A stretch of 64,000 nucleotides of DNA from Candidatus Aegiribacteria sp. (GTDB lineage: Bacteria; Fermentibacterota; Fermentibacteria; Fermentibacterales; JCC-6), in assembly GCA_030613065.1 (NCBI GenBank), contig JAUWMQ010000002.1:18007-82006 (forward strand), in the 5' to 3' direction. Below are positions 1,031 through 31,344 of this stretch, one piece after another (the first letter of the stretch is position 1; each line of letters starts with the position of its first letter). The notes below the pieces were generated by a model, which had not been told where the DNA came from, did no database searches, and was given only the letters and a program-made list of their open reading frames with translations. The translations under genes and the position numbers were made by a program.

Positions 1031-1256
1031 CAATGATAGTACTTCTCTTTTCAATTGTTCAAAACTACCTGTATTTAACTGTATAAAATTCTCTCTTGTG
1101 TAAAAGTCCTGTTTCTTTATTTTGTTTTCTACAATTTTTCCACATGGGTTTTTCTCTCATATCTTTTCTGCATGTGACATGTCCACATATCCACAAGTAT
1201 AATAACTATCATTATTGTTCTAAGATTACTGTATTTATAAAGCTGGAGGAATTTCC
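1031..1256. promoter_or_regulatory. Candidate oriC / dnaA-dnaN intergenic origin region: AT-rich stretch with clustered DnaA-box-like 9-mers
   Basis: A 226-bp AT-rich spacer lies between dnaA and dnaN. It contains TTTTCCACA (1126..1134), TGTCCACA (1180..1187) and TATCCACA (1188..1195), all close to the TTATCCACA consensus. The dnaA-dnaN spacer is the oriC location in many bacteria. Confidence 0.45.
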
Positions 1257-2378
1257 ATGATTAAACTTCTTGTTAACCATTCCGACTTACTCAAAGGTCT
1301 TAATTGTGTTGCCACAGCCCTCCCTACAAGAAGCAGTCTTCCTTATCTCACCAATGTTCTTCTTGAAACCGAAGGAGAAACACTTCGATTATCGGCAACT
1401 GATCTCGATACCACGGTTATTACTTCAATACCGGCATCGGTAACAACTAGCGGTTCTATAACACTTCCAGGTAAGAAGTTTCATGAAATAGTGCGTGAAC
1501 TTTCAGAGGAAGAAGTTCGTTTAAGCGGCACTGGTAACAGAATAACAATAAGCTGTGGACTTGGTTCTTTTACATTGAGCGGTAGCTCAAGCGAGCAATT
1601 CCCTTCCCTTCCATCGAAAAGCGGTGTTGATCCATCATGCATTCCTGTTGATGTTCTTTCTGATGCAATTAGAAAAACTTCTTATGCTGTTGCCCATGAT
1701 GATTACAGAGCAACTCTTAACGGAGCACTACTTGATTTCAGCGAAAGCGGATTTGAGATGGTCGCTACCGACGGCCACCGACTTAGTTGTATTACTCTTG
1801 GCAGCCTATCTTCACCCGTAAGTATTCATGCCCTTGTTACGCAGAAAGCCTTGAACCTTTTCGCAAAATTGTCTTCTAATGGAGATGTTCTTATCAGATT
1901 TAAAGGATCGCAGATATCTTTTGAGTTTGGTGATACAATTATTTTCAGCAGAACAATCGATGGAGAATATCCTCCCTACAGGAAAGTTATTCCGCAGGAT
2001 AATGACTGTAGTCTTTCTACAGACAGAGAGGATCTTATATCCGTTCTGCGAAGGGTTAAGACAATGGCGAATCCAACCACCCATCAGATAAAATTCTCAC
2101 TTGAAAAAGACAAAGTTCTTGTTCATTCAGAGAGCGTTGATGCGGGAGATGCACAGGAAGACCTCACTGCTGAATACCAGGGCAGGCCATTCCAGATAGG
2201 GTTCAATGGTAATTTTCTCATGGAAATACTTCGAAATATGAGTTGTGAAAGAATTACAATGAAAATGAAAGACAGTAATACAGCAGTTGTGATTAATGAT
2301 TATGAGGAGACGGATGGTTCCGACTCCTACCTTGCACTGATCATGCCTGTAAAGTTGTCAAAAGCAACAGAAGAGTAG
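1257..2378 (+). CDS. dnaN: DNA polymerase III beta sliding clamp
   Basis: 373 aa immediately downstream of dnaA. The N-terminus MIKLLVNHSDLLKGLNCVATALPTRSSLPYLTNVLLE is typical of the beta clamp, and the three-domain length fits. Confidence 0.92.
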   Translation: MIKLLVNHSDLLKGLNCVATALPTRSSLPYLTNVLLETEGETLRLSATDLDTTVITSIPASVTTSGSITLPGKKFHEIVRELSEEEVRLSGTGNRITISCGLGSFTLSGSSSEQFPSLPSKSGVDPSCIPVDVLSDAIRKTSYAVAHDDYRATLNGALLDFSESGFEMVATDGHRLSCITLGSLSSPVSIHALVTQKALNLFAKLSSNGDVLIRFKGSQISFEFGDTIIFSRTIDGEYPPYRKVIPQDNDCSLSTDREDLISVLRRVKTMANPTTHQIKFSLEKDKVLVHSESVDAGDAQEDLTAEYQGRPFQIGFNGNFLMEILRNMSCERITMKMKDSNTAVVINDYEETDGSDSYLALIMPVKLSKATEE

Positions 2379-2391
2379 TAACTGAATCATT

Positions 2392-2667
2392 GTGAGGAAG
2401 ATTAACGATCTGATACCTGATGTTCTGGATAATTTTGAACCGGACTGTTATCATAAAAGGAACAGAGTTTTAATGCTGTGGGAAAACATCGTCGGAGAGG
2501 AACTTGCCTCTTTCGTTAGACCGACAGGTTTTGAAGGATCCGTGCTCATGCTTAGAGTAGTTCACCCGGCAGCATCAATGGAAATCGGACTTAGAAAGAG
2601 AGAAATACTGCTCAAGCTGAATTCAGAATTTAACGAAGAGCTCTTTTCTGATTTAAAAATAGTATAG
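2392..2667 (+). CDS. Small DUF721/DciA-like protein in the conserved dnaN-gyrB slot (GTG start)
   Basis: 91-aa ORF in the position usually occupied by DUF721 proteins between dnaN/recF and gyrB. The assignment rests on position and size only; no recF is present. Confidence 0.45.
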   Translation: MRKINDLIPDVLDNFEPDCYHKRNRVLMLWENIVGEELASFVRPTGFEGSVLMLRVVHPAASMEIGLRKREILLKLNSEFNEELFSDLKIV

Positions 2668-2691
2668 CGTGCAAGACGAAAGGTAAACGGT

Positions 2692-4617
2692 TTGAGCGGG
2701 AATAACATAAACTATGATGCCAACTCGATAAAAGTTCTTAAAGGGCTTGAACATGTTAGAAAAAGACCGAGTATGTATATCGGATCAACTTCACAGACTG
2801 GTCTGCACCACCTGGTCTGGGAGGTAGTGGATAACAGTATTGACGAAGCTCAATCAGGTTTCTGTACATCGATAGATGTGATTCTGTACGACGACCGTTC
2901 GGTTTCAGTTAACGATAACGGTCGTGGTATTCCAATTGAGATGCACGAGAGCGGAAAGTCAGCGCTTGAAGTGGTTATGACTACCCTTCACGCAGGAGGG
3001 AAATTCGATAATACCGCGTATAAGACATCTGGAGGACTCCACGGTGTTGGAGTAAGCGTTGTTAATGCGTTGTCTGAATGGCTGACCGTTGAGGTACATA
3101 AAGGTGGTAATATCTATACACAAAGTTACCATCGAGGAACGGCGGATGGACCACAGAATAATATCGGCAATACGGATCTGACAGGAACAAGAATCAGATT
3201 CTTGCCTGACTATGAACATATATTCGAAATATCGGAGCTTAACTTTGAAACACTGTGCAGCAGACTGCGTGAGCTCGCCTATCTCAACAACGGGTTGAAA
3301 CTGAGCATTACTGATAAAAGACTGGAGAACGCAGAAAGGTATGAAGAATACTGTTTTGAAGGTGGCTTGAACTCTTTTGTATCTTATATAAATGAAGCTC
3401 ATACGACACTTCATAATCCCGTGAGAATAAATGGAGAGTTCGAACTTGAAGAAGATGGGCTTATAATTATCGATGTAGCATTTCAATACAATAAAGCCTT
3501 CCAGGAGGACATATTTTCTTTTGTTAACAACATCAATACTATTGATGGAGGCACACATCTGTCGGGAATGAAATCAGCTCTCACGAGGACACTGAATGAA
3601 TATGCCTCGTCCAATAACATGTTCAGCACCAAGGATGATTCATTCTCAGGAAGCGACGTAAGAGAGGGCCTGGTAGCAGTAATAAGCGTCAAAATTTCCG
3701 ATCCGCAATTCGAGGGCCAGACAAAAACCAGGCTTGGAAACAGAAGTGTTCAGGGAGCCGTACTTTCCCACGTCAGCAGGGGAATATCAACTTTCCTTGA
3801 AGAGAACCCCTCAATAGCAAAGAATATTGTTCAGAAATGCCTTCTTAATCACAGTTCCAGACAGGCCGCAAAGAAAGCCAGGGAACTTACCAGAAGGAAA
3901 TCAGCGCTTGAAACCGCTGCTCTACCCGGGAAGCTTGCGGATTGCACTGTGAACAACCCGGAGGAGGCTGAGTTATTCATAGTAGAGGGTAATTCAGCCG
4001 GGGGTTCAGCGAAACAGGGCCGTAACAGATATTTCCAGGCAATACTGCCTCTCAGGGGAAAGATTCTCAATGTAGAGAAGGCACAACTTGGAAGAGTTCT
4101 TCAGAACAACGAAATAAGAACGATCATCACAGCCGCAGGAACAGGTATCGAAGAAGATTTTGATATAAGCAACATCAGATATCATAAAATTATTATCATG
4201 ACGGACGCGGACGTTGACGGATCCCATATAAGAACCCTGCTTCTTACATTCTTTTACAGGCATATGCCCGAACTGATAGAAAATGGATACATTTATGTTG
4301 CACAGCCCCCGCTCTACCTTATAAAGAAGGGAAGCACTAAAAAGTATGCATATAATGAAAAGGAGAGAACTAAAATCGTAGAGGAGTTCGGAAATATCGG
4401 TATTACTATGCAGAGATACAAAGGACTCGGTGAAATGAATCCGGATCAGTTATGGGCAACTACGATGGATCCTGAGAAGCGGGTTCTTCTGAAGATAAGA
4501 CTTCAGAATGTCATGGAGGCGAGTCATATTTTTTCAGTTCTCATGGGTGATGATGTTGAACCAAGACGAGAATTCATACAGCAGCATGCCGCTGATGTAA
4601 TGAACCTTGATGTTTAG
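2692..4617 (+). CDS. gyrB: DNA gyrase subunit B
   Basis: 641 aa with a TTG start. Contains the GHKL ATPase motifs (HHLVWEVVDNSIDEA, GLHGVGVSVVNALS), a TOPRIM region (EGNSAGGSAKQGRNR) and the C-terminal motif QRYKGLGEM. Confidence 0.95.
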   Translation: MSGNNINYDANSIKVLKGLEHVRKRPSMYIGSTSQTGLHHLVWEVVDNSIDEAQSGFCTSIDVILYDDRSVSVNDNGRGIPIEMHESGKSALEVVMTTLHAGGKFDNTAYKTSGGLHGVGVSVVNALSEWLTVEVHKGGNIYTQSYHRGTADGPQNNIGNTDLTGTRIRFLPDYEHIFEISELNFETLCSRLRELAYLNNGLKLSITDKRLENAERYEEYCFEGGLNSFVSYINEAHTTLHNPVRINGEFELEEDGLIIIDVAFQYNKAFQEDIFSFVNNINTIDGGTHLSGMKSALTRTLNEYASSNNMFSTKDDSFSGSDVREGLVAVISVKISDPQFEGQTKTRLGNRSVQGAVLSHVSRGISTFLEENPSIAKNIVQKCLLNHSSRQAAKKARELTRRKSALETAALPGKLADCTVNNPEEAELFIVEGNSAGGSAKQGRNRYFQAILPLRGKILNVEKAQLGRVLQNNEIRTIITAAGTGIEEDFDISNIRYHKIIIMTDADVDGSHIRTLLLTFFYRHMPELIENGYIYVAQPPLYLIKKGSTKKYAYNEKERTKIVEEFGNIGITMQRYKGLGEMNPDQLWATTMDPEKRVLLKIRLQNVMEASHIFSVLMGDDVEPRREFIQQHAADVMNLDV

Positions 4618-4649
4618 TGTCCTGTGAATAAACTAGAAAGAAACTAAGT

Positions 4650-7136
4650 ATGATCGAAAGGGTTGAAGGAGACCAGTTGAGCAGCAGTCATAACGTAAAA
4701 TCGGACGTCATTGATATAGAAGAGGAAATGAAACGTTCCTACATGGATTATTCCATGAGCGTCATCGTTTCAAGAGCCCTGCCCGACGTAAGAGATGGTC
4801 TTAAGCCGGTGCACAGAAGAATTCTGTATTCGATGTATGAGCAGAAACTTACCCACAAACGTGGATACAGGAAATCAGCAACAGTTGTTGGTGATGTTCT
4901 TGGAAAATACCATCCCCATGGGGATTCCGCGGTCTACGATGCGATGGTTAGAATGGCGCAGGATTTTTCTCTCCTGCATCCTCTTGTGGATGGACAGGGC
5001 AACTTCGGATCAATAGATGGTGATCCAGCAGCAGCATACAGATATACTGAAGCAAGGATGTCCAGAATAGGCTCGGAAATGCTTCGCGATATCGATAAGG
5101 AAACCGTGAATATGGTTCCCAATTTCGATGACCGCCTGAAGGAACCATCAATACTTCCCTCAGGAATACCGAATCTTCTAGTCAACGGTTCGTCAGGTAT
5201 AGCAGTTGGAATGGCCACAAATATACCACCACACAATCTTCGAGAGATAGTCAGTGCATGCTGCAGAATTATTGAGAATCCCGACCTTACCGAAGAAGAG
5301 CTATTCAGCATAGTTAAAGGACCCGATTTTCCCACAGGCGGCATAATTACAGGTACTCGGGGTATAAGGGACTGTTACACGACCGGAAAAGGGTCCATCC
5401 CGGTCCGCGGAAGGGTTTGTATTGAAGAAGCACCGAGGGGCAGGGAAGCCATAATAGTCACAGAGATTCCCTACCAGGTGAATAAGACCAGACTCATTGA
5501 AAATATCGCCGAACTGGTCAAGCTGAAAAAAATTGTATCAATAGCAGATCTACGCGATGAGTCCGACAGAGATGGCATGCGAATAGTCATCGTGCTGAAG
5601 AATGACGCCCTTTCTGATGTAGTACTTAACCAGCTTTACAAGCACACCAGCCTTGCAAAAACATTCGGGGCGAACTGCCTTGCTCTCTGTAACGGGAAAC
5701 CTTTAAGATTGACCCTTCGCAATTTTCTTGACTATTACATTGAGCACAGGCACGATGTTATTGAGAAACGGGTAATATTCGATCTCGCAAAGGCGGAAGC
5801 TAGAACCCACATCGTGGAAGGGCTACTCAAGGCGCAGGATTCGATTGAAGAAGTTATCAGGGTCATACGGGAATCCGGCGACAGTGATGAAGCCAGATCA
5901 GGACTTATGGATGGATTCGGATTCACCGAAATCCAGGCTCAGGCTATACTTGATATGCGCCTGAGAAGACTCACAGGCCTTGAGCGGGATGAGCTGGAGA
6001 AAGAATACGGTGAACTGAAGATTCTTCTGGCAGAACTCAGAGAATTTTCAGCGAGCAGGTCAAAGAGGATGAAGATCGTTGCCGATGAACTTTTGGCAGT
6101 TGCCGATGAATACGGCAGGGAACGAAAAACGGAGATAATGCCTTACGCCCCCGGAGAAATAGACATAGAGGATCTGATCCCCGACGATGAGATGGTAATC
6201 ACCGTATCACGAGAGGGCTATATCAAGAGACTCTCATCGGATACCTACAAGATCCAGCACAGGGGCGGCAAAGGTATTACCGGAGCGAAGACCAGGGAAG
6301 AGGACTCACTGGAGCAGATCTTTGTTTCTTCAAATCATAGTTATATCCTGTTTTTCACCAACCAGGGAAGGTGTTACTGGCTCAAAGTTTACAAAATACC
6401 TGAGGCGGGCCGCATCAGCAAAGGAAAAGCAATAGTCAATCTTCTGGACCTTGAACCCGAAGAAAGACCTGTTGCCAACGTCTGCGTGAAGGAATTCGAT
6501 GAAGACAGGTTCATACTTATGGCAACCAGTAATGGGCTGGTGAAGAAAACATCTCTTTCCAGCTATAGTCATCCGAGGAGAAATGGAATTTGGGCCATCA
6601 AGCTTGATAGTAACGCTGAACTTGTCTCCGCCGCTCTTACAAATGGAAACGGTTGGATTTTCCTTGCCCTTGCTGGCGGTAAAGCCAACAGTTTTTCCGA
6701 GAAGGAAATTCGTCCAACGGGCAGGCATACAAGAGGAGTAAGAGGTATCAGAGTGGGTAAGCTCGACAGGCTGGTTGGCATGGTAGCCATGGAGAAACCC
6801 GGGAGTCTGCTTACTGTAACGGAAGGCGGGTACGGCAAAAGGACCTTATCTGAAGAGTACAGGATTACTCACCGGGGAAGCGGCGGAGTGATCAATATCC
6901 GCAACATTGATCGAAACGGTCCGGTCATTTCAATCATGCAGGTTTCCGAGAAGGATGAGTTAATCCTTATTTCCGCACTTGGAATGATTATAAGGCTTCC
7001 AATTGAACAGATAAGGGAGATGGGACGGAGTACAATGGGAGTCAGGCTTATGAATCTGCCCGTTGAAGACAGCGTGGTGGACGCGGCTATTGTACATCCA
7101 GGTGACGATAACGCGGATCAGGGAGAAACGGAATAG
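4650..7136 (+). CDS. gyrA: DNA gyrase subunit A
   Basis: 828 aa. Contains the active-site region [11 protein letters not shown] (catalytic Tyr) and a QRDR-like [22 protein letters not shown]. The C-terminal repeats are typical of the GyrA beta-pinwheel. Confidence 0.95.
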
Positions 7137-7195: not shown

Positions 7196-10100
7196 TTGAA
7201 ACCTCCCGAAATTGGAAAGGGTTTCAGTCTTCCGGAAAAGAATCTTGATATATCAATCGTTTCCCCCGAAACAAGAAGCAGGGTCCTGGCAATATCTCTT
7301 TTTTCATGGGAATGGAAAACCGCCGGAGATGCCCTGGCATTTCTTCTTACCACGATAAAAGACAGCGATGTAGATAAACTTCTTGATAACCTGTCGAATA
7401 TGCAGTCGCCGCCACCGGTCATGGAAGATTCGGCGGTCAAGTGGTTCTCAGCCCTCACCAACCTCCCGTCTGACGCCGTGGTTGTGGCTGTTCAGGAATT
7501 TTTTCATCTCAGCTGGGTATGGAACCAGATAGGTCCACGCACAGGGCTTGTATTTGATGATCTCATCTCATTGTTATACAAGACATTGCGCGTTCTGGCG
7601 GAAACACCTGGAGACCTTTATCTTGCCGAAACACTGATTCAGAAAGGCATCAGATGGCCTGAACGATTCGGTTTCATGCTTGAAAGGACAAGGATAGGCG
7701 GAGGGAATATCGTACGTGCCCTTCAGCGCGCAACAGAGATAATGAAGTATGCCCCCCCTGTAGTTCACGAAACCCTTATTGATTTCGCTGTTGAGACAGG
7801 ATGGTATCTTCTTGCAAAGGAAGACTTGCCGGTATGGAGATCGATAGGAAGGAACGGGGAATCTCTTTTCAGAAAAATGAGGGGATTTTCAATCAAGATA
7901 GAAGCAATCCGTACTCTTTCCGGGTTTCTTGGAAAGCTGGAGGAAACCGAAGAACTGCACCCACTGCTGGAAGACACGATGAAGAGAGTAATCACCGATA
8001 TACTGGGCGAACTTGCCGAACAGGATATGGACGAAATTCTTGAAAATATTTCCGAAAAGGCGAGAGAAGGGCTGAAAAGAAGAGCTGAGAGAAATATAAA
8101 CTTTGATATCATAGACCTGCCTGTCACAGACAGCGGGAACGCACTCGATTATGGAAGAGCTATCGCAGAGATGATCTTGTTCGCCGGGGCAGGAAGAGCC
8201 TTCTATAACTGCTTCCGCGAAACATATTCCATAGCAATAGAGACGGCTGACAATAATCAGGTAATCATGATATCCCGACTCGCTCGTGACAGAAGTGGAA
8301 CCGATTATCTGGAGAGCAGCAAAACTGAATTTTACATTGATTTCATTCCCATTGCTCTGAAGTTCCTTGAAGGGAAGACCAGTAATACAGAGATAAAGCG
8401 GGTCGTTAATTCTGTTGGACGCCTGATGGATGCGATTCTTTGTCAGGACGATCCTGAAGCGGCAATAGTATCCACGAATGCCTACCTGGAGAAGGTTGAG
8501 ATCAGCTATGACAAACTGTTGCCCACGCTTGTACTGCTGTTCCGCTCGACGAAGAGTGCCAGATTTCAGGATCTTGTTTCAAAAAGCGAAGTTTTCGCAG
8601 GCATACTTGACCTGTTGAATGTCAATTACAGAAAAAGACTCCTGGAAGGTGAACAAACAGAATGGTTTACACCACTGGCTGAGGAATCCATCCATTCGGC
8701 AGAGGTTATCATGCGCAAACTGGGAAATATCAATGATGTAGAACTTCGCGGAAGATTCATGGATAAGGTAATAGCTCCTCTGTTGCAGGGAACGGATACA
8801 GAAGACCCCATATTCAACGAACTTATCTCAACCGCTGTCTCCACTTATAACAGAGAGATGAGCATAGACCAGCTGAGGAAAGAGGAAACATCACTTCTTG
8901 GAAAGCTGTTCAGGGCAGAGGACAGGAGCAAGGCTCTCAAGAAATCAATGGAAAACCTTCTAAGAATTCCAGGGATAGAGGAAAAGAAAGCCAACGATCT
9001 CATCTACTCCTCAAGAATGCTCTGCGATATCCTTTCTCAGCAGGCAGTCTGGATAGAGAAGACCGGACATAGAATCTTCAGCAAATTCCTCTCCTACGGA
9101 CTTAACGCATTTGTGAAAACCCTTGTGGAACACCCCGATATAGCCGAAAGAGTGACTGGAAATTTCATGAGGCTTATGATCGATACCATAATTCCTTCAA
9201 AGGAAACTGAGGACAGTGATGTGGCTCTCTGGCAGTTGAAGACGGCGGCGCTGTACTTTGGGAAAACCATACCACTGACGACCGAGCTTATTGCCGATAA
9301 ACCTGATACTCTTATCTCTTACTTCATCGAGATATCAGAGCTCGCAGTGGCTTCCAAGTACGGAGAACCTGCGGGAGCCGCGTTCCTTTCATGGATGTCC
9401 CACAGGCTTGAGTCTGAACTTACCAGTGAATTCGCAAGAAAGGTGAGTGAAGATACTCCATACTCCGAATTCAATGAAAAATTCAATGCTACGTGGCTTA
9501 TGGATAAATGGAGGAGCATAAGGGAAGCGTCCTCCGAAATAATGAAGGAAATGGTGGAATCACTTCAAATACTTACCAGCAACCCTCTCTACCGCCAGAT
9601 ACTTCTCCGGGAGGGACGTAAACTCATTGAGGGTTTCATTGAGAATGGATGCAGCGATATCATTTCCGGTTACACAGGGCAAGACCCCCACGCGGAAATA
9701 GCAAAACTCAGAAAAATCGCTGAGGGCAATGATATCATTGATATATTCAGAATAATGGAAAACGAAAGTAATAGTTCAGCAGGGGAGATTCCGTCAGAAG
9801 TAAGGAGCTTCTTCCAGGAGCAGGCATGCCCTCCGGGCCAGAATATGTGCAGGTGCTGGCGAAAGAAGGTATTCTCGACGCTTGAAAATGTTCTCCTGGA
9901 TATAATACTGCTTTGCGATGATAAAAAGAGCCTTGAAGAAATTGAACAGATGATAGATGATTTTGTAGAGATAATAGGATACTTGGGTACCGATGATGAT
10001 TTTAAACCAAATATAATTCTAACTGCTCTTGAAAAATCACTCTCAAGATCCGAAGGCAGCAGGAAGATGACCATAAGTGTTGCCGTAAGGAACCTTGATA

Positions 10101-10783
10101 AAAACGTATACAAGCTGATGTGGCTCAGGAAAGCCACCAGGAAAGCTGCGGAATCGGTTGCTGGTTATATCCCCGGCAGGAAGATTTCCATTAGACTGTT
10201 CGACAGGATTTCAAGAGAAAAATCCGCACAGGAGCAGATACTTTTCATGAAACACTTCGGGAAAATTTTCGCTTCCCTGGAAAGTGAGATCATGAGGAAG
10301 AAACCCACAGAAATTAAGTCAGTTAGATCCGCTCTGGAGCATATCTGGATATTCAACCCGGAAGTGGCAAAACAAGGATCAGTAGTTGACATCGCAAGGG
10401 ATGCTGTAGAAATCGTAACCCAGTTCTTCCTTGAAGTTGGAACAAGGACAGGAGCGGTCAGCGCGCCCGAGGCAGGGGCAATAAGTCTCGGTATGCGACG
10501 CAAATATAGAGACAACGCGAATACGGTTGCAATTCTAATCAAATGGACACAGGATTCATCGCGCTCTGATCTTCTGACTCTTGTGGAGGCGCACCAGCCG
10601 TTACTTGAAGCTGTCAGCAGAGACAGCGAGCTCATTCAGATGATAGACAACCTCTGGAGTATCGGTAAAGCAAGGCTATATATAAGATCCCTTGCTGACA
10701 GACCGGACAAACTTAAAAAGCGGTTGATCCGTTTCACAGGAGATAACGCGACTGGAAGTAATGACGGATTACAGTATACATGA
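7196..10783 (+). CDS. Very large (1195 aa) hypothetical protein, predicted largely alpha-helical, with no recognisable catalytic motif
   Basis: Uninterrupted 3.6-kb ORF with a TTG start, and no Walker, HExxH or similar motifs seen by eye. Its 3' end overlaps the asparaginase start by 23 nt, implying translational coupling. It lies directly downstream of gyrA. Confidence 0.55.
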   Translation: MKPPEIGKGFSLPEKNLDISIVSPETRSRVLAISLFSWEWKTAGDALAFLLTTIKDSDVDKLLDNLSNMQSPPPVMEDSAVKWFSALTNLPSDAVVVAVQEFFHLSWVWNQIGPRTGLVFDDLISLLYKTLRVLAETPGDLYLAETLIQKGIRWPERFGFMLERTRIGGGNIVRALQRATEIMKYAPPVVHETLIDFAVETGWYLLAKEDLPVWRSIGRNGESLFRKMRGFSIKIEAIRTLSGFLGKLEETEELHPLLEDTMKRVITDILGELAEQDMDEILENISEKAREGLKRRAERNINFDIIDLPVTDSGNALDYGRAIAEMILFAGAGRAFYNCFRETYSIAIETADNNQVIMISRLARDRSGTDYLESSKTEFYIDFIPIALKFLEGKTSNTEIKRVVNSVGRLMDAILCQDDPEAAIVSTNAYLEKVEISYDKLLPTLVLLFRSTKSARFQDLVSKSEVFAGILDLLNVNYRKRLLEGEQTEWFTPLAEESIHSAEVIMRKLGNINDVELRGRFMDKVIAPLLQGTDTEDPIFNELISTAVSTYNREMSIDQLRKEETSLLGKLFRAEDRSKALKKSMENLLRIPGIEEKKANDLIYSSRMLCDILSQQAVWIEKTGHRIFSKFLSYGLNAFVKTLVEHPDIAERVTGNFMRLMIDTIIPSKETEDSDVALWQLKTAALYFGKTIPLTTELIADKPDTLISYFIEISELAVASKYGEPAGAAFLSWMSHRLESELTSEFARKVSEDTPYSEFNEKFNATWLMDKWRSIREASSEIMKEMVESLQILTSNPLYRQILLREGRKLIEGFIENGCSDIISGYTGQDPHAEIAKLRKIAEGNDIIDIFRIMENESNSSAGEIPSEVRSFFQEQACPPGQNMCRCWRKKVFSTLENVLLDIILLCDDKKSLEEIEQMIDDFVEIIGYLGTDDDFKPNIILTALEKSLSRSEGSRKMTISVAVRNLDKNVYKLMWLRKATRKAAESVAGYIPGRKISIRLFDRISREKSAQEQILFMKHFGKIFASLESEIMRKKPTEIKSVRSALEHIWIFNPEVAKQGSVVDIARDAVEIVTQFFLEVGTRTGAVSAPEAGAISLGMRRKYRDNANTVAILIKWTQDSSRSDLLTLVEAHQPLLEAVSRDSELIQMIDNLWSIGKARLYIRSLADRPDKLKKRLIRFTGDNATGSNDGLQYT

Positions 10784-24582: not shown

Positions 24583-26343
24583 TTGCGGACAAGAGTCTTT
24601 TTACCAGCCGGTCTAATTCTTACAATTCTCTTTGTTGTGTACAGATTCATGGAACTTCTCCCGCGTGGCCCATCAGATAAGGTCGTTCAATTTATTCTGC
24701 TGGTTTCTGCAGGTGTTTGCTTTGCTCTGCATATTGCCCGAAGGACCGACCGAGATCTGATTCGGTGGATTCTGGAAAAAATAGGGAAACCCACTACCGC
24801 CAGGTTTCTCGGACTTCTTCTCGTAATTATGGCGCTTTTTTCCATATGGATGGCTTATGGACCTTTAGAGGGGATCCCGAAGGGTGGTGACGAAGCCGCA
24901 TATTATTTTCAATCAAAGATATACGCTGCCGGTCATCTTTCTGCACCAGTACCGAGTGTTGATAATCCAATGGCCTACTTTCCGTTCCGGCATTTTATCT
25001 TCAGAAATGACATGTGGTTTATTGTCTATACCCCCTTCCATTCACTATTGATGGCACCCTTCACCGCCGCTGGCGCAGCCCCTCTCCTTGGCCCCCTTGA
25101 AGGGCTGCTTTCTCTTCTGGGAATATTCCTTCTGATAAGGCTTTGGACGGGAGAAACGATAGCCCGTGTCAGCGTCATTCTTCTTCTTTTGTCACCTTTC
25201 TTCCTTTTCATGACAAGCACATTTATGGCTCACAATACGAACCTGATGCTGATGACGTGGTCACTTTACCTGATCTCCAGAAGGGCAAAGGGGGCATCGG
25301 CTGCCTACGGGCTTTCAGGAGGTTTCCTTATTGGACTTGCCTTTGCCACCAAACCTTATCCTGTTCTAGTGTGGCTATTCATCATACCTCTTGCAGTTAT
25401 AGTGGGCTGCCGGGACAGGTGGTTCCGTATTCTGGCACCGGCTGCTGCTGCCGCAGCTATACCCTTCGCGCTATTTCTGTTGTCGAACAGTTATTACACA
25501 GGAAACCCTCTTCATGCCGGATACGACCTGGTCAGGGGAGGAAAACTGATAGGCTTCGGCCCGGACAAGGCATGGTTTCCCGAATACGGAGATCACGCGC
25601 ATACCCCCCTTAGGGGACTGTTCAATGTTGCAAGGCAGATCGGGGTTGGAAGCACTATCATGTTCGGCTGGCCGTTCCTCTCCCTGTTTCCAGTGCTTGC
25701 GGCACTTGGAAGGGCGCGAAAGGAGAGACGAGTTCTCTTGCTCTATATCCCCCTGGTATTAATCATGTTGCTGATGTTTCTTCATTATTGTACTGCTATC
25801 GATTACGGGCCAAGACATTACTTCACTTTCATGCCCGTTATCATGCTTCTTTCAGCAATAGGATTAAGGGAAGTAGTAAGATACGCCAGGAAAAGAAGAG
25901 GGGTAGAAGGAAGCAATGTAGTGGCTGTCTTTGTCTTTTGTATGTTTTTGATCACTTTGTTCGTTTATTTGCCGGAGGGAATAGAACTCAGGTCGGGACC
26001 ATGGCAGAGCATTGACAACCAGCCCCGGATAACAGCTTCAAGTTCTGTCGAAACTCCCTCAATTGTATTCATGCAGGCGGGACAGTACGGATACCCGAAT
26101 ATCAGCAGCGGTATTAATTTCAATTCACCTTATCTTGACAATGAAATTATTTACTGCGCTCACCAGACACCCGGCGAGGACATTCTGTTCATGCAGGCTT
26201 ACTCCGGAAGAAACTCCTACCTTTACTGGTTTGACGGGAGCAGTTTCCATATTGAGCCATGGACACAGTATCGTTCAGAAGCCATCGCACCTACCAGGGA
26301 TATGGAATACTTTGCACATTTACATATGCTTGATTCAAGATGA
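24583..26343 (+). CDS. GT-C fold membrane glycosyltransferase (PMT/ArnT-like, GT39/GT83-type polyprenyl-phosphate-sugar-dependent transferase)
   Basis: 586 aa with more than 10 predicted TM helices. A DE-type acidic motif lies in the first periplasmic loop (GGDEAAYYFQSKIYAAGH), as in PMT/ArnT enzymes. The C-terminus is a soluble domain. Confidence 0.6.
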   Translation: MRTRVFLPAGLILTILFVVYRFMELLPRGPSDKVVQFILLVSAGVCFALHIARRTDRDLIRWILEKIGKPTTARFLGLLLVIMALFSIWMAYGPLEGIPKGGDEAAYYFQSKIYAAGHLSAPVPSVDNPMAYFPFRHFIFRNDMWFIVYTPFHSLLMAPFTAAGAAPLLGPLEGLLSLLGIFLLIRLWTGETIARVSVILLLLSPFFLFMTSTFMAHNTNLMLMTWSLYLISRRAKGASAAYGLSGGFLIGLAFATKPYPVLVWLFIIPLAVIVGCRDRWFRILAPAAAAAAIPFALFLLSNSYYTGNPLHAGYDLVRGGKLIGFGPDKAWFPEYGDHAHTPLRGLFNVARQIGVGSTIMFGWPFLSLFPVLAALGRARKERRVLLLYIPLVLIMLLMFLHYCTAIDYGPRHYFTFMPVIMLLSAIGLREVVRYARKRRGVEGSNVVAVFVFCMFLITLFVYLPEGIELRSGPWQSIDNQPRITASSSVETPSIVFMQAGQYGYPNISSGINFNSPYLDNEIIYCAHQTPGEDILFMQAYSGRNSYLYWFDGSSFHIEPWTQYRSEAIAPTRDMEYFAHLHMLDSR

Positions 26344-26581
26344 AATTACCAATAAAACCATATGCATTCTGGAATATTTCAGGAAACTGCTTTTTTGCAG
26401 CTGCGAACAACGCAAAACTGCTTATTCAGCAGATGTTCATATATGCTCATTTCTATACTAACCATATATTCCATACGTGGTTTTGCTTCAAAGAAAACTC
26501 AATATAGTGCAGTATGCAAGTACTTAAATCATAAAGCGCTATTCGCATAGTATTGAATAATAGCCATAGAATAGAGAAATA

Positions 26582-27565
26582 ATGATAACTCTTAAAAGAT
26601 TACAGAATGTTTCAAGTACTAGATTACGAAAAGTATTACATGTTGTTAAGATGTTCAATGGCCGTAGCCCGCTATATCCACGTTTTATTCAATTGTTGCT
26701 CACATATAAATGCAACTCAAATTGTCCTTTTTGTTATCAAGACGCTGAGAAAAAGAAAATTCCCGACATGAGTATCAGTGACGCTAAGATTATTGAAAGA
26801 AATATAAGAAAATCATTTAACTTCAAACCAAGAATACATTTTTTCGGAGGGGAACCTACAGTAAATACTGATTTCGTGGAAATCCTGAAATACTTTTCTA
26901 ATTCAGGTTACAAAATATCCATGACTACAAATGGAATTAATTTACTCAAATACGGGAGAGAAATTGTAGAAGCCAAGGGACTAAAGGAAATACATATTTC
27001 TCTTAATGATTTGGATTTTGAAAGAGTGTTATCAACTGTGAAGCAAATCAGCGACATTGATGTGAATAATAGTCTCCATTTAACAATAAACTGCCCGATT
27101 ACGGAGGTTAATCAAGATAGATTACTTGAAATTGTTGAGAAATTTGAACACACGGAAGCACAGTGTCTTACATTTCAACATCGCGGTTTTATTTGGTATA
27201 ATGGGTTTGTATCAATGGACCATAAATTAGTAAGACATCAGTATGACATAATTAAAAGGCGTAATAATAACATACGCATACTATTTCATCCGAGTATTAA
27301 ATCCAAGGATATCGAAGCTTACTATACGGATAAAGAATATCCCTACAATAATAACAAATGCTATTATCCATGGTTTGTCCTTTTTATACAGCCTAATGGA
27401 AGTATAATACCCTGCGATGAGCTCAATATTACAGTTGGAAATGCAGTAACTGAAAGCCTTAAGAATCTTTGGAATAATGCAGAATATGTAGCATTCAGGA
27501 AAGGGATTATTCTGAATGGAATATCACATTCAATATGCCATAGATGTGATCATAGAGATTACTAA
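26582..27565 (+). CDS. Radical SAM enzyme with C-terminal SPASM/twitch-like cysteine cluster
   Basis: CxxxCxxC motif at YKCNSNCPFCYQ and a glycine-rich SAM motif FFGGEPT. C-terminal cysteines IPCDE...HSICHRCDH resemble an auxiliary Fe-S domain. The gene is AT-rich. Confidence 0.75.
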   Translation: MITLKRLQNVSSTRLRKVLHVVKMFNGRSPLYPRFIQLLLTYKCNSNCPFCYQDAEKKKIPDMSISDAKIIERNIRKSFNFKPRIHFFGGEPTVNTDFVEILKYFSNSGYKISMTTNGINLLKYGREIVEAKGLKEIHISLNDLDFERVLSTVKQISDIDVNNSLHLTINCPITEVNQDRLLEIVEKFEHTEAQCLTFQHRGFIWYNGFVSMDHKLVRHQYDIIKRRNNNIRILFHPSIKSKDIEAYYTDKEYPYNNNKCYYPWFVLFIQPNGSIIPCDELNITVGNAVTESLKNLWNNAEYVAFRKGIILNGISHSICHRCDHRDY

Positions 27566-27579
27566 ATAGGAGCTGACAC

Positions 27580-28728
27580 ATGATTACAATCGTGATACCG
27601 GCATTGAACGAAGAAAATACCGTTGGTATTTGCGTCAAAAAGGCTATAGAGACTATGCGTAATCTTAATGTAGAGGGAGAAGTCATAGTCGCCGATAATG
27701 GATCCACCGACAAAACAGAGGAGGTAGCACTTAAGGCAGGCGCAAGAGTTATTAAGACGGAAGAGAAGGGTTATGGAGCTACTTACAGGCAGAGCATACC
27801 GCACGCCCAGGGAGAGTTCATTATAATGGGAGATGCTGATGATTCGTACAATTTTGAAGAAATTGGCCCATTTATTGAAAAATTGAATCAGGGATATGAG
27901 TTCGTGATGGGAAACAGATTCAAGGGTAAAATAGAAAAGGGGGCTATGCCATTATTGCATCGTTACATAGGGACTCCTATACTAACCGCAATTATGAATC
28001 TATTTTTCAAGATTGGGATTAGCGACACAAACTGTGGCATGAGGGCATTTACAAAGAACGCATTTGAGAAAATGAAATTGAAAACCTCTGGTATGGAATT
28101 TGCTACAGAAATGATAATAAAAGCTTCCGCTGTCGGACTGAAAATGTGTGAAATTCCTTGTAATCTTTACAGAGACAAAAGGGATCATCCACCACACCTG
28201 AACACCTGGAAAGATGGATGGAGATATCTCAGGTTCATGTTATTGTTTACTCCCTTTTGGACGTATCTTGTTCCAGGATTAACCTTGATGTCCATTGGGA
28301 TACTGGGAATGATCACTCTTTTCGTAAGGGATTGTACGTCACCACTATTCCTCGGTAATATAATAGAGCCAAAATACTTCTCACTGCTTCTTCTGCCACT
28401 GTTAGTGGGAAGTCAGATAGTATCTTTTGGTATTATTGCTTGTAGTCTTAGTTATGCAAAACACTACAATAATATTAATAAAAGGATATATAGTTTATTA
28501 GGAAAATTCAAACTTGAAAATGGTCTACTTACAAGCCTGCTTCTTTTATGCACTGGCGGCTTGATTATTACTTATCTGATTGTTTCTAATTACTGGGGAG
28601 TAGGTCCAATTATTGGGGATGCAGTTAGAAATGACTTGAGTGTTATAGCGACCGCGCTGATTGTTTTTAGCACGCAAATATTTTGTACATCATTTATACT
28701 TAGTATAGATATTCTAAAGGTTATTTAG
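27580..28728 (+). CDS. GT2 polyprenyl-phosphate sugar synthase-like glycosyltransferase (DPM1/ArnC/GtrB type) with C-terminal membrane anchor
   Basis: ITIVIPALNEE, VADNGSTDKT and IMGDADDSY (DxD) form the GT2 catalytic core. The last roughly 150 aa have 4 predicted TM helices, as in GtrB/ArnC. Confidence 0.8.
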   Translation: MITIVIPALNEENTVGICVKKAIETMRNLNVEGEVIVADNGSTDKTEEVALKAGARVIKTEEKGYGATYRQSIPHAQGEFIIMGDADDSYNFEEIGPFIEKLNQGYEFVMGNRFKGKIEKGAMPLLHRYIGTPILTAIMNLFFKIGISDTNCGMRAFTKNAFEKMKLKTSGMEFATEMIIKASAVGLKMCEIPCNLYRDKRDHPPHLNTWKDGWRYLRFMLLFTPFWTYLVPGLTLMSIGILGMITLFVRDCTSPLFLGNIIEPKYFSLLLLPLLVGSQIVSFGIIACSLSYAKHYNNINKRIYSLLGKFKLENGLLTSLLLLCTGGLIITYLIVSNYWGVGPIIGDAVRNDLSVIATALIVFSTQIFCTSFILSIDILKVI

Positions 28729-28768
28729 CGTTGCATTTTGCATTATTATATAGAGATAGAATGTTATT

Positions 28769-29503
28769 ATGAAAGAATCACGCGTTGCGTTTTATAAGAG
28801 ATGGGGAACACACTCAAAACCATATTTTGAGTGGCAATCGGAGCAAATATCAAAATATGTTGGTAAAAGAATAGCGGATATAGGTTGCGGATTAGGAAAT
28901 TTTGTAGAAGTATTTAGTGACAAAGAACTCTATTTAGGATTTGATCCAGACGAATCGGTTCGACAGGAAATACAGAGATCGGAGTATCCCGATAATTTCA
29001 GATTATCAAAAAAGGGTGATATCTGTCAGGCGGAAACAGTAGAAGAGATTAATGTAAATGACATAGATACAATTATATGCATAAATACCTTAGAGCATAT
29101 TAAAGATGACAAACAAGCACTGACTAATATGGTCAAGGCAGTTAAAAAGGATGGTCATGTATGCTTAATTGTTCCTGCTTTACATTGCCTTTATGGTTCG
29201 CTGGACGAATTTGATGGTCACTATAGAAGATATTCAAAAAAGGACTTATTAGTACTCACAGATAATTTGGAAGTGGAAATAGTTCTATTACGTTATATGA
29301 ACATGATTGGAAGCGTAGGATGGTTTATCAAGAGCAGAATTGTAAAAGAAAAAACATATAAGAACACGAATTTCAATATTATAGTAAGTCTTCTCCCGAT
29401 AATATCTTTTTTAGAAAAATATATAAAACCTATATTTGGTCTTTCACTTGTTCTGGTGCTGCGAAAGCGTAATAGTTTACGTCCCTTTACATCAGTGAAA
29501 TAA
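28769..29503 (+). CDS. Class I SAM-dependent methyltransferase
   Basis: Motif I IADIGCGLGNF and the acidic motif II region LGFDPDE. The 244-aa length fits the family. Confidence 0.7.
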   Translation: MKESRVAFYKRWGTHSKPYFEWQSEQISKYVGKRIADIGCGLGNFVEVFSDKELYLGFDPDESVRQEIQRSEYPDNFRLSKKGDICQAETVEEINVNDIDTIICINTLEHIKDDKQALTNMVKAVKKDGHVCLIVPALHCLYGSLDEFDGHYRRYSKKDLLVLTDNLEVEIVLLRYMNMIGSVGWFIKSRIVKEKTYKNTNFNIIVSLLPIISFLEKYIKPIFGLSLVLVLRKRNSLRPFTSVK

Positions 29504-29513
29504 GTCATAGAAT
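29486..29513 (+). promoter_or_regulatory. Putative sigma70-type promoter for the riboswitch-leader transcript (TTTACA-16-TAGAAT)
   Basis: A -35 TTTACA (29486..29491) and a -10 TAGAAT (29508..29513) with a 16-nt spacer lie about 25 nt upstream of the first GEMM aptamer. Confidence 0.3.
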
Positions 29514-29539
29514 ATTATTAGGCGGTAGAGCACCGCTAA

Positions 29540-29620
29540 GCAAACCGGAGGAAACTCCGGGACGCAAAGCCACGGATCCCAGCCGCTTCAGGGGAAAGCG
29601 GAAGGATAGCCGGGTTACCG
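29540..29620 (+). ncRNA. c-di-GMP-I (GEMM) riboswitch aptamer, copy 1 of a tandem pair
   Basis: GCAAACC-GGAGGAAACUCC-GGGACGCAAAGCCACGG...GGAUAGCCGGGUUACCG matches the GEMM-I hallmarks. These are the 5' CAAAC, a P1 hairpin with a GAAA tetraloop, GACGCAAAGCC, and the 3' AGCCGGGUUACCG. Compare V. cholerae Vc2 GGGCAAACC...GGGACGCAAAGCCUCCGG...GGUAGCGGGGUUACCG. Confidence 0.8.
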
Positions 29621-29631
29621 TTTGACTCAAT

Positions 29632-29708
29632 GCAAACCGGAGGAGACTCCGGGACGCAAAGCCACGGATCCCAGCCCGGGAAACCGGGAAGGACAGCCGG
29701 GTTACCAG
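29632..29708 (+). ncRNA. c-di-GMP-I (GEMM) riboswitch aptamer, copy 2 of the tandem pair
   Basis: GCAAACCGGAGGAGACUCCGGGACGCAAAGCCACGGAUCCCAGCCCGGGAAACCGGGAAGGACAGCCGGGUUACCA. It shares conserved cores with copy 1 but has a different P2 hairpin (CCCGGGAAACCGGG), so it is a diverged duplicate rather than a recent repeat. Confidence 0.8.
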
Positions 29709-29756
29709 ACGTCTGCCCGAGGGGGAACTCCCGAGCAGGTTGAGGAGGTGCTCAGG

Positions 29757-30029
29757 ATGAGGTTGATACCAATAATACTGGTAGCGCTTCTGCCGTCGGT
29801 AATGCTAGCCGGCGTAACCGTATCCTCCTGCACTGCTGATGTTGACAGTTTTATCAGCATCGCCAGAGAGGCAATGGAGGATGGTAACTACGTTACCGCG
29901 TTTGCTCTGTATGAATGCGCTCTCCGAAGAGAACCCCACTCTTCAGAAGCTCTCGCAGGCTGTCTTATGGCCAGGGCTTTTATGGTGGAGTGTTGTTCTG
30001 CAACGCAGATTCAGGTTACTTTACGCTGA
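29757..30029 (+). CDS. Small secreted/lipo-protein (90 aa) downstream of the tandem c-di-GMP riboswitches; helical TPR-like mature region
   Basis: Strong SD GAGGAGG at 29741..29747, then an ATG at 29757. Signal peptide MRLIPIILVALLPSVMLAGVTVSSC. The ORF-track N-terminal extension from 29622 is the riboswitch itself. Confidence 0.5.
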   Translation: MRLIPIILVALLPSVMLAGVTVSSCTADVDSFISIAREAMEDGNYVTAFALYECALRREPHSSEALAGCLMARAFMVECCSATQIQVTLR

Positions 30030-30051: not shown

Positions 30052-30075
30052 GGGACGGGCCTTGAGGCCCGTCCC
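30052..30075. terminator. Bidirectional stem-loop between the convergent small protein gene and serS
   Basis: Perfect 10-bp stem GGGACGGGCC-TTGA-GGCCCGTCCC located between the two stop codons. There is no strong U-tract on either side. Confidence 0.45.
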
Positions 30076-30084: not shown

Positions 30085-31344
30085 TTATCCCAGAATTTCT
30101 ATCCCGGTTCTTTCTGCCAGCACTTTCGGCAACATGATCTTCCCTGATTCCGTCTGACCATTCTCTATAATGGCAGCCATGATTCTTGGAAGGGCCAGCC
30201 CCGAGCCGTTGAGTGTATGTACATACTGAAGCTTCCCTCCACCCGCGGGCCTGTATCTTATACCGCCCCTTCTTGATTGAAAATCGCGGAAATTTGATAC
30301 TGATGAAACTTCAAGCCACTTTTCCTGTCCTGCGGACCATACCTCAAAATCGTAGCATTTCGCGGCTGCAAAGCTGAGATCACCTGTTGCCAGAAGAGAA
30401 ATCCTGTATGGAAGGTTCAGTAATTCAAGCATTTCCCCCACATGTACGGCCATTTTCTCAAGTGTTGCTTCAGAATTCTCTGGTTTGACCATCTGCACCA
30501 TTTCAACTTTTTCGAACTGGTGTACTCTGTTGAGACCTCTGGTGTCCTTACCATAGCTTCCCGCTTCCCGTCTGAAACAGGGAGAATAGCCGAAAATCCT
30601 GATGGGAAGGTCATTTTCCTGCAGTATGGAATCACGATAGAGATTTGTAAGAGGAACCTCTCCGGTGGGGACAAGAAAAAGGTCATCCTTCTCTATGTGA
30701 TACATGTCATCTTCAAGCTTCGGGATCTGCCCGGTTGAAGTCATGCTTTCCCTGTTGGCAAGGAAAGGAACCCAGATTTCTTCCATGTCTGCCCTGTGGT
30801 GGAAATCCATCATCCAGTTTATAAGAATTCTCTGAAGCCAGGCAGCCCAGCCTCTGAGAAGAATGAAGTTGGATCCTGCTATTGATCCCGAAGCTTTCTG
30901 GTCGAAGAGCTCTCCAAGGAGTTCCCAGTGGGGAAGAGCTTTGAAATCAAAAGAGGGTTTCTCCTCGACGGTTAATATAATTCTGTTGAAGGTTTCATCA
31001 CTGCCGAGCGGAACATCAGGGTCCGGAATGTTGGGAAAATAAAGTTCCAGTTCACTCATCCTGGCGTCTGTAGCATCAAGGTCCTTCTCAAAGGAGGCGA
31101 TTTTTTCACCTGTCTCCCTGCTTTCCAGTATCCGGGCGTCCGCCTCTTTTCCCTCCTTTTTCAGGGAAGAGACTTCCTTGGAGAGTTCATTTCTGCGCCT
31201 TCTCAGTTCCTCGGTTTCACCAAGCAGCGAGCGTCTTCTTTCATCAAGCTCAAGCCATTCATCAATCGGGCAGGGTTCACCTTTGTTCACAGCTGCTGCG
31301 CGTACTCTGTCCGAGTTATTTCTAAGAAGTGCCCTGTCCAGCAT
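30085..31344 (-). CDS. serS: Seryl-tRNA synthetase
   Basis: 419 aa with the N-terminal coiled-coil arm (MLDRALLRNNSDRVRAAAVNKGE...). Class II motifs are present (FRREAGSYGKDTRGLNRVHQFEKVE; motif 3 GSGLALPRIMAAIIEN). Confidence 0.95.
   Translation of the reverse strand: MLDRALLRNNSDRVRAAAVNKGEPCPIDEWLELDERRRSLLGETEELRRRRNELSKEVSSLKKEGKEADARILESRETGEKIASFEKDLDATDARMSELELYFPNIPDPDVPLGSDETFNRIILTVEEKPSFDFKALPHWELLGELFDQKASGSIAGSNFILLRGWAAWLQRILINWMMDFHHRADMEEIWVPFLANRESMTSTGQIPKLEDDMYHIEKDDLFLVPTGEVPLTNLYRDSILQENDLPIRIFGYSPCFRREAGSYGKDTRGLNRVHQFEKVEMVQMVKPENSEATLEKMAVHVGEMLELLNLPYRISLLATGDLSFAAAKCYDFEVWSAGQEKWLEVSSVSNFRDFQSRRGGIRYRPAGGGKLQYVHTLNGSGLALPRIMAAIIENGQTESGKIMLPKVLAERTGIEILG

Follow-up and report, generated by a model that had tools for sequence, protein, structure and literature searches.

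Two adjacent GEMM-I aptamers with a putative shared translational platform precede a small TPR-protein gene in Candidatus Aegiribacteria

Introduction

Tandem GEMM elements have been known since the motif was first described, when they made up one third of the delta-proteobacterial examples (PMC1950547, Weinberg et al. 2007). The cyclic di-GMP class I (c-di-GMP-I) riboswitches are the class with the most tandems, 347 doublets and 12 triplets, which are characterized as 'pseudo-cooperative' and have multiple expression platforms (PMC9481103, Sherlock et al. 2022). In the Bc3-5 triplet of Bacillus thuringiensis each aptamer is followed by a terminator (PMC4759541, Zhou et al. 2016), and according to a 2025 survey contiguous c-di-GMP riboswitches tend to be complete units, adjacent aptamers on one platform being typified by the glycine riboswitch (PMC12452182). 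The surveys give tendencies only: the supplement of PMC12452182 contains no counts of adjacent-aptamer c-di-GMP pairs, and some of the 347 doublets may share the adjacent, one-platform layout. Here we analyse a tandem GEMM-I leader that precedes the gene for a 90-amino-acid TPR protein in a 64-kb stretch of DNA from Candidatus Aegiribacteria sp. (contig JAUWMQ010000002.1; hereafter the window, whose own numbering is used throughout).

Our main conclusion, to which we assign a probability of about 0.6, is that this leader is a functional riboswitch of the GEMM-I fold in which two adjacent aptamers share one translational platform that controls one small TPR gene. The element is almost certainly functional. 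With the Vc2 riboswitch of Vibrio cholerae, also in Rfam family RF01051, it shares the GNRA tetraloop on P2, the P3 helix, the GACGC-A(47) core and the UUAC-C(92) tail. It differs from Vc2 in that position 20 is A or U and not G, and in that aptamer 1 is without a conventional P1, its junction strand being predicted to pair with either the 5′ end of the transcript or the ribosome-binding site (RBS). Control here would moreover be translational, through a 5′-terminal anti-Shine-Dalgarno (anti-SD) element, and not by a terminator.

Like the described c-di-GMP-I tandems, the leader places two aptamers of the same class in one 5′ untranslated region, presumably sharpening the response (PMC9481103, PMC4759541, PMC1950547). 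The published tandems, however, are complete units that each have their own (terminator) platform, whereas the aptamers described here are adjacent and apparently serve a single translational one. The original prediction for this stretch, made from the sequence letters, had called the arrangement a classic tandem; since the published classic consists of two complete riboswitches with their own platforms, the label does not fit, and a shared platform would appear to be a different mechanism for steepening the response, the steepening itself being conjectural. In layout the closer likeness is the tandem glycine riboswitch, which also has two adjacent aptamers and one expression platform, but its fold and ligand are unrelated, and the tertiary contacts and cooperativity demonstrated there are conjectured here. 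The GEMM-Ib riboswitches of Geobacter (Gs1761) have the same fold and the A20 that is found in aptamer 1 (PMC6140456). In contrast to GEMM-Ib, A20 is variable among the relatives of our leader, aptamer 2 has U, the host is an Aegiribacteria lineage and there are no exoelectrogenesis genes; the comparison is one of fold and position 20.

The class, its tandem habit and platforms that sequester the Shine-Dalgarno (SD) sequence are all established and hold no surprise for a specialist. As far as the sequence can tell, the departures from the norm are the one-platform architecture with a 5′ anti-SD, the hypervariable and non-canonical position 20, and the host and target.

Results

Both aptamers are full-length members of the GEMM-I class

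Two GEMM-I aptamers had been predicted about 11 nt apart, with cores at 29540..29620 and 29632..29708, and a search with RF01051 had been proposed as the check. When the whole window was scanned with cmscan against Rfam at gathering thresholds (35 bits for RF01051), the region returned exactly two forward-strand matches to this family, each covering the full model (1-87 of 87), with scores of 68.1 bits (E 3.3e-11) for aptamer 1 and 64.4 bits (E 2.6e-10) for aptamer 2 (Table 1). Elsewhere in the 64 kb there were no Rfam matches. Both aptamers are full-length members of the class, and the predicted pair is borne out. Aptamer 1 carries a GAAA tetraloop on P2 and a long distal P3 hairpin, and aptamer 2 has a short distal P3 hairpin with a GAAA loop. 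The 5′ halves of the two are near-identical (one difference in 40 nt); the distal P3 hairpins differ and are specific to each copy, in line with the peripheral differences that had been noted.

For comparison we took 30 related loci from metagenome-assembled genomes (MAGs) of Aegiribacteria/Fermentibacteria and from metagenomes. Deduplication gave 24 distinct tandem leaders (alignment A2), or 26 leaders when the single hybrid aptamers of loci L002 and L030 are included. The suggestion that homologues of the small protein might also be preceded by GEMM motifs proved correct for every locus that covers the leader: RF01051 matched directly upstream of the homologue as a pair in 27 and singly in two (L002 and L030). 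All 53 further matches in the related loci (53.8-68.4 bits) lie directly upstream of homologues, with none elsewhere in these ~187 kb.

The intercalating adenine A47 is universally conserved in the class (PMC9049102). Its equivalent is kept in both aptamers, GACGC-A being invariant in all 26 leaders, and both aptamers of every leader carry a (U/C)(U/C)(A/G)CC tail whose two C positions never change. We take the first C of this tail to be the equivalent of C92 in Vc2. C92 forms a Watson-Crick pair with one guanine of the ligand.

Helix conservation was assessed on A2 by scoring together the canonical helices of both aptamers, the closing helix of aptamer 2 (P1b), a variable hairpin (HP) and the long-range helix described below. 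This joint model of 65 pairs was paired in 96.8% of cells, and 13 of its pairs changed on both sides; 500 column shuffles produced nothing as good, and slid alignments were 27-48% paired. The covariation sits in the P2 tips and distal P3 stems of both aptamers and at the base of HP. P1b was paired in 97.2% of cells with one-sided changes only, A or G opposite U (CAGACG/CAAACG/CAAGCG), and with a U-U mismatch in four sequences. Lack of conservation in P1 and P2 had been named as grounds for giving up the prediction; P2 shows double-sided changes, and P1 of aptamer 2 is kept by pairing with one-sided changes.

Position 20 is non-canonical and hypervariable

In GEMM-I aptamers of the Vc2 type, G20 reads the Hoogsteen face of the ligand's second guanine. 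Position-20 equivalents were located by the Rfam alignment and by a spacing of 27 nt to A47, which in aptamer 1 agrees with Vc2 numbering; the same spacing holds in both Vc2 and Vc1 (PMC4744006). Both aptamers had been credited with the diagnostic cores of the class, which is right for the A47 and C92 equivalents but not for position 20: the window has A29539 in aptamer 1 and U29631 in aptamer 2, and the G that defines the c-di-GMP-selective subclass is present in neither. The family counts are A3/C10/U8/G6 for aptamer 1 (26 leaders including the two single hybrids) and U17/A3/C3/G1 for aptamer 2, with G mostly in the most distant relatives. The conserved A that marks GEMM-Ib is present in aptamer 1 of the window, with C, U or G in relatives and U in aptamer 2.

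An A at position 20 reads the adenine of 3′,3′-cyclic GMP-AMP (cGAMP) or gives dual specificity (PMC6140456; PMC9481103 Fig. 3). Vc2 binds c-di-GMP with a Kd of ∼0.011 nM, and mutation of G20 weakens this affinity ∼30,000-fold, into the sub-micromolar range (PMC4744006; PMC9049102). By analogy, the affinity of the aptamers described here is probably sub-micromolar and not picomolar. Because position 20 is A or U in the window and hypervariable in the family, c-di-GMP is not assured as the ligand, and the c-di-GMP control that had been proposed is not secure. The conserved C92 and A47 equivalents imply at least one G in the ligand. The safest statement is that the sequence points to a 3′,3′-cyclic dinucleotide that contains at least one G and is held less tightly than in textbook aptamers; the leader may respond to c-di-GMP, to cGAMP or to both. 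Weaker binding would suit a thermodynamically controlled translational switch, and the family constitutes a natural mutational series at the nucleotide that separates c-di-GMP from cGAMP.

The tandem is old and its copies appear homogenised

The tandem had been described as evolved and not as a fresh duplication, with copies that share cores. Its age is supported: it is present in 24 distinct Candidatus Aegiribacteria/Fermentibacteria leaders, and because these include lineages with proteins down to 58% identity, the comparison indicates an old tandem and no fresh duplication. Independence of the two copies did not hold up. Their 40-nt 5′ halves have 1.67 differences within a genome compared with 3.0-3.6 between orthologous copies (permutation p <1e-4), suggesting that the copies are homogenised within genomes, presumably by gene conversion. 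The P2 stems (29547-29558 and 29639-29650) are identical within the genome in 12 of 24 lineages and differ between genomes. Gene conversion is the simplest account of these matching stems; there may also be a functional need for matching P2, through strand-swapped pairing between the aptamers.

The single aptamers of L002 (380-469) and L030 (337-425) are hybrids that join the 5′ part of aptamer 1 to the 3′ part of aptamer 2, and the start codon of the L030 homologue reads ATA. These hybrids could be real products of unequal recombination or decay, or else an assembly collapse of the repeat. As a separate observation, locus L006 (JAUXBI010000036.1, from a MAG labelled 'Syntrophaceae bacterium') has a leader identical to that of L007 (JAUVIR010000026.1, from a Fermentibacteria MAG), and the two share upstream island genes; L006 is probably a mis-binned contig.

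A 5′-terminal element can pair with the ribosome-binding site

A sigma-70-type promoter with 10 of 12 consensus matches precedes the aptamers. The same -35 element, a spacer of 16-17 nt and a -10-like hexamer are found in all 26 distinct leaders, in which the end of the -10 is always exactly 7 nt upstream of GGCGGU; those 7 nt vary in sequence. Because of this constant distance we place the predicted transcription start at ∼29520-29521, so that the mRNA would start with GGCGGUAGAGCACCGCC. These first 17 nt are the most conserved part of the leader, with a mean pairwise identity of 96.3%, compared with 92% for the SD region, 86-88% for the aptamers, 78% for the coding sequence and 65% for HP. 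Conservation of the SD region extends over GCUC, which the ribosome does not need, and the 3 nt before the AUG are only 49% conserved. In the 5′ element and the SD region, loop and spacer positions for which no other constraint is evident are conserved as well. In the window, GAGGAGGUG precedes the ATG at 29757.

The 5′ element can pair in two ways. It can fold on itself as a hairpin, P0 (29521-29526 with 29532-29537, loop AGAGC), which was paired in 99.3% of cells and has an energy of -6.5 to -9.4 kcal/mol. A candidate anti-SD, GAGCACC-GCC within 29528-29537, has its complement GG-GGUGCUC at the RBS, and the resulting long-range helix (29528-29537/29744-29753) was paired in 99.1% of cells. 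This helix was predicted unprompted by both RNAalifold and single-sequence minimum free energy (MFE) folding, its duplex energy runs from -15.6 kcal/mol (window) to -18.7 kcal/mol, and nowhere in the leader does the SD region have a better partner than the 5′ element. Constrained folding of all 24 leaders was used to compare the SD-sequestered and SD-open folds. The sequestered fold was the MFE structure in 21 of 24, with the open (P0) fold -4.8 to +2.6 kcal/mol away. These near-equal energies suggest, within the limits of such folding, one shared bistable translational switch.

We rejected transcription termination as the platform. No hairpin followed by a U tract is present on the + strand anywhere in the leader (29529-29757), no second RBS lies between the aptamers, and the P2 hairpins, read on the minus strand, account for the two spurious scan matches within the leader. 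HP was likewise rejected as an intrinsic terminator, being without a U tract. The base of its stem is kept by compensatory changes (UA/CG/UG, columns 206-230; 7 double changes), and (A/G)UUGAGG follows.

Aptamers are regarded as adjacent when <20 nt separate them and no terminator or RBS lies between (PMC12452182). The Rfam matches abut, and 11-12 nt separate the cores in all 24 leaders; on this definition each leader would have an adjacent-aptamer, single-platform architecture. A conventional P1 for aptamer 1 (GGCGGU/ACCGUU, 29521-26/29617-22) fits all sequences, yet was rejected as the ligand-bound helix: forming it disrupts the P1 of aptamer 2 at a cost of 8-16 kcal/mol, takes up the C92 equivalent in a pair and leaves a junction of 13-15 nt. 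A pseudoknotted state without ligand could contain this helix alongside the anti-SD helix, a type of structure beyond ViennaRNA scoring.

Table 1. Coordinates of the leader, its candidate regulatory elements and the downstream gene in the window
Feature	Position	Strand	Details
Sigma-70-type promoter	29486..29513	+	-35 TTTACA 29486-29491, 16-nt spacer, -10 TAGAAT 29508-29513
5′-terminal element GGCGGUAGAGCACCGCU	29521..29537	+	P0 hairpin and candidate anti-SD
GEMM-I aptamer 1	29529..29622, core 29540-29619	+	A29539 (position 20), A29566 (A47 equivalent), C29618 (presumed C92 equivalent)
P1b 5′ strand CGUUUG (closing helix of aptamer 2)	29619..29624	+	directly after the aptamer-1 C92 equivalent
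GEMM-I aptamer 2	29623..29709, core 29632-29706	+	U29631 (position 20), A29658 (A47 equivalent), C29705 (presumed C92 equivalent)
P1b 3′ strand CAGACG	29706..29711	+	pairs with 29619-29624
Variable GC-rich hairpin (HP)	29712..29739	+	between aptamer 2 and RBS; without U tract
Shine-Dalgarno region GGAGGUGCUC	29744..29753	+	core GGAGG 29744-29748; 3′ strand of the candidate long-range helix
Putatively regulated gene, 90 amino acids	ATG 29757..30029	+	N-terminal hydrophobic helix and ∼1.5 TPR repeats
10-bp GC hairpin GGGACGGGCC-UUGA-GGCCCGUCCC	30052..30075	.	between the small gene and serS

Proposed mechanism

In the mechanism that we propose, the 5′ end of the mRNA would either fold on itself as P0, leaving the SD free, or pair with the RBS and hide it. 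The long-range helix would enclose both aptamers, with aptamer 2 nested in its loop. The 3′ strand of P0, ACCGCC, would enter the two-nucleotide junction and P2 of aptamer 1 like the 5′ strand of a canonical P1, and its 5′ strand, GGCGGU, would be the 5′ end of the transcript; with strands placed in this way, P0 could serve as a 'nicked' P1 of aptamer 1. P1 of aptamer 2 would start right after the aptamer-1 C92 equivalent and so physically link the two pockets. If the element is an ON switch, ligand in both aptamers would lock P0 and P1b, the anti-SD would be tied up and the RBS would be open; without ligand, the long-range helix of the computed MFE structure would hide the SD and block translation. 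On these models we weakly favour ON over OFF.

A more elaborate form of this mechanism combines cooperative dual aptamers, coupled pockets, a permuted nicked P1 that doubles as anti-SD, and retuning of affinity or specificity at position 20. The first 17 nt of the mRNA would then be both a topologically permuted P1 of aptamer 1 and the anti-SD. Loss or turnover of the position-20 contact would retune the affinity to sub-micromolar values and/or toggle between c-di-GMP and cGAMP, with a purine or pyrimidine reading G or A by Hoogsteen-type pairs. We put this combination forward tentatively and think it doubtful that all of its parts hold together; were it true, the leader would be the first adjacent-aptamer, one-platform example for the class.

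Several points weigh against a shared-platform riboswitch with two working aptamers. The P2 covariation is partly common to both aptamers through the apparent gene conversion, and to that extent they are not independent evidence. Unless L002 and L030 are assembly collapses, their single aptamers indicate that the leader may not need the second one. All three alternative pairings of the 5′ element lack covariation support, being invariant; with so little variation in the 5′ element and the SD region, covariation cannot discriminate between them, and the anti-SD model relies on conservation, complementarity and energetics of the sequence. The long-range helix reaches a shuffle p of only ∼0.02-0.03 in the single sequence of the window and is weakened by an A-C mismatch in leader L026. 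Nearest-neighbour energies are unreliable for a five-way junction, and ligand and tertiary contacts fall outside the calculation, which is also why the call between ON and OFF is weak. Finally, we found no genes with GGDEF, HD-GYP, PilZ or other cyclic-dinucleotide motifs in the 255 kb of the window and 31 loci, so that this DNA gives no sign of ligand production by the lineage. The Aegiribacteria genome paper makes no mention of cyclic-dinucleotide enzymes or receptors.

If the architecture is right, it would give the most commonly duplicated riboswitch class a second, glycine-like route to a sharper response, and would provide a compact natural system for aptamer-aptamer coupling. Current understanding is not overturned. 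The leader is the only cyclic-dinucleotide-linked element in ∼250 kb of DNA from the uncultivated Candidatus Aegiribacteria/Fermentibacteria of the FCB superphylum, and it points to a lineage-specific 90-amino-acid secreted TPR protein beside envelope glycan genes as the signalling output.

Alternative explanations

The same architecture could operate in the opposite direction. The long-range helix would then be the true closing helix of aptamer 1; ligand in both aptamers would organise the five-way junction and stabilise this helix to block translation, and P0 would be a ligand-free, translation-ON decoy. Topologically, the long-range helix alone closes the aptamer-1 junction like a canonical P1, which P0 does not; P1b would leave the helix a shorter loop to close, from which positive cooperativity could arise naturally; and a preprint reports the Vc2 riboswitch as an OFF switch (bioRxiv 10.1101/617340). 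However, with the SD-sequestered fold already the ligand-free MFE structure in 21 of 24 leaders, an OFF switch would have little dynamic range under thermodynamic control. The junction-side neighbour in the long-range helix is moreover A29743 and not the C92 equivalent, so that C92 could stack on P1 in the canonical way only after a rearrangement, and described GEMM-I tandems are mostly ON (PMC4759541, PMC9481103). An OFF switch is possible, but we would not bet on it.

Two further explanations turn on position 20. One holds that a single aptamer senses the ligand and that the other, most likely aptamer 2, is a non-binding scaffold, or 'ghost aptamer', as has precedent in singlet glycine riboswitches (PMC9481103). 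Aptamer 2 is indeed without G20 in 23 of 24 lineages (U, C or A), and the leaders of L002 and L030 manage with one aptamer. But in every lineage aptamer 2 has retained its A47 and C92 equivalents, tetraloop and closing helix and an Rfam score of 60-68 bits, features that a scaffold does not need, and aptamer 1 is likewise without G20 in most close relatives of the window; we consider a ghost aptamer unlikely. The other is a two-input device, whose aptamers differ in specificity (for example c-di-GMP and 3′,3′-cGAMP) and whose shared platform integrates both. G versus A at position 20 is a known specificity switch (PMC9481103 Fig. 3; PMC6140456), and mixed pairs do occur: G/A in L014 and L027, G/C in L019 and L031, and C/U in ten leaders. 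These pairs nevertheless shift freely among close relatives (A/U, C/U, U/U, G/A, G/G, A/A), a pattern that suits relaxed constraint better than a fixed logic, and both aptamers of the window are non-G (A and U), making this explanation improbable as well.

An ordinary 'pseudo-cooperative' tandem of two full c-di-GMP-I riboswitches, one after the other and each on a platform of its own, is the published norm of the class (PMC9481103 Table 1; PMC12452182; PMC4759541), but it is contradicted by the abutting matches, by inter-core segments that are the P1 strand of aptamer 2 and by the lack of a hairpin with U tract or a second RBS between the aptamers, and can be set aside as very improbable.

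The downstream gene encodes a single-TPR protein with an N-terminal helix

The prediction named one downstream target, a 90-amino-acid protein with a signal peptide and a TPR-like body, and the coding pattern, AlphaFold2 model, Foldseek comparison and profile search all agree with it. An exact look-up of the protein returned no record, and SerS was matched on a 9.5-kb Logan contig only. In a collection of 5.8 billion proteins we found 32 relatives, the named ones coming only from Candidatus Aegiribacteria MAGs. Differences by codon position were concentrated in the third (8347 versus 3796 and 2942), which is dominant in codons 1-15 too. With this coding pattern and a strong SD before the ATG at 29757, a start at Met16, as in public calls of 75 amino acids, was rejected. 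The 135-amino-acid open reading frame (ORF) from TTG 29622 (29622..30029) was also rejected; as had been foreseen, it is a read-through of aptamer 2. Public annotation of the relatives (P0001-P0032) is inconsistent and contains the same miscall: proteins of 131-156 amino acids start inside the riboswitch, their N-termini being in-frame translation of the GEMM core, and the calls of 75 amino acids have lost the signal or anchor helix. Two JGI records label the homologue 'cytochrome c-type biogenesis protein CcmH/NrfG', which reflects TPR similarity only.

AlphaFold2 modelled an N-terminal helix (residues 4-17) and three further helices (29-41, 45-58 and 63-79), with a predicted local distance difference test (pLDDT) score >90 for residues 30-80. 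Foldseek matches were to TPR proteins only, with a root-mean-square deviation of 0.6-0.9 Å over ∼48 residues. An exhaustive profile search of 1.8 billion representatives returned four full-length clusters, and the remaining matches were all multi-repeat TPR proteins. The Pfam model TPR_19 stayed below its cutoff (E 0.003), and assignment to the TPR family comes from the family profile and the AlphaFold2 superposition. The N-terminal helix is predicted to be a signal peptide or membrane anchor. A lipoprotein identity for the family in general was rejected: the window has VSSC, but in many homologues S, I, A, V, T or D takes the place of Cys25. On the model, one TPR unit carried by a signal or anchor helix suggests a small periplasmic or surface adaptor that binds proteins.

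Genomic neighbourhood

The small gene holds a fixed position, convergent with a serS-dagK-PAP2-degT-sugar transferase series, and the upstream side varies among loci. A convergent serS with a terminator between the genes had been predicted, and serS is found at 30085-31344, beyond a GC hairpin (Table 1) that is a probable shared terminator. The U tract after this hairpin on the + strand is weak (GCCUUUGAAUU), and a simple terminator scan made no call there. Co-transcribed extra genes were considered as clues to function and rejected: insertions before serS are on the other strand or differ between loci, and for this reason we take the target to be the one small gene. As a minor observation, in one sub-lineage only (L012, 4883-7106, and also L017) genes for a PAS-domain histidine kinase (634 amino acids) and a receiver-domain protein (116 amino acids) lie on the same strand between the TPR gene and serS.

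Glycan genes had been reported on both sides of the leader, which Pfam matches support. Upstream, an AT-rich block (GC 0.36-0.37 versus ∼0.47) encodes a PMT_2-family glycosyltransferase, a radical-SAM/SPASM protein, a GT2 glycosyltransferase and a methyltransferase. The AT-rich 26000-29500 stretch, with the radical-SAM/SPASM, GT2 and methyltransferase genes, is common only to L006 and L007 (77-85% amino-acid identity) and in part to L021, and looks like a variable or acquired glycan-modification island that abuts the conserved riboswitch promoter. Downstream of serS the Pfam matches are dagK, PAP2, DegT, sugar transferase, GT2, B12-radical SAM, GT4 and GT9, followed by GT4, GT2, Wzy_C, a MurJ-like flippase and more GT4.

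At the beginning of the window are dnaN-gyrB-gyrA and a V-type ATPase operon. The dnaN-gyrB-gyrA genes (323-7136) suggest an adjacent replication origin, and GC skew is positive over ∼2-21 kb. Right after gyrA, a 1195-amino-acid ORF (7196-10783, +) had no Pfam match at E <= 1e-5. Among the related loci, L007 encodes on its minus strand (5157-6431) an esterase-like protein of 424 amino acids whose C-terminal tail resembles a sorting domain of type IX secretion, a feature that would agree with placement in the FCB superphylum.

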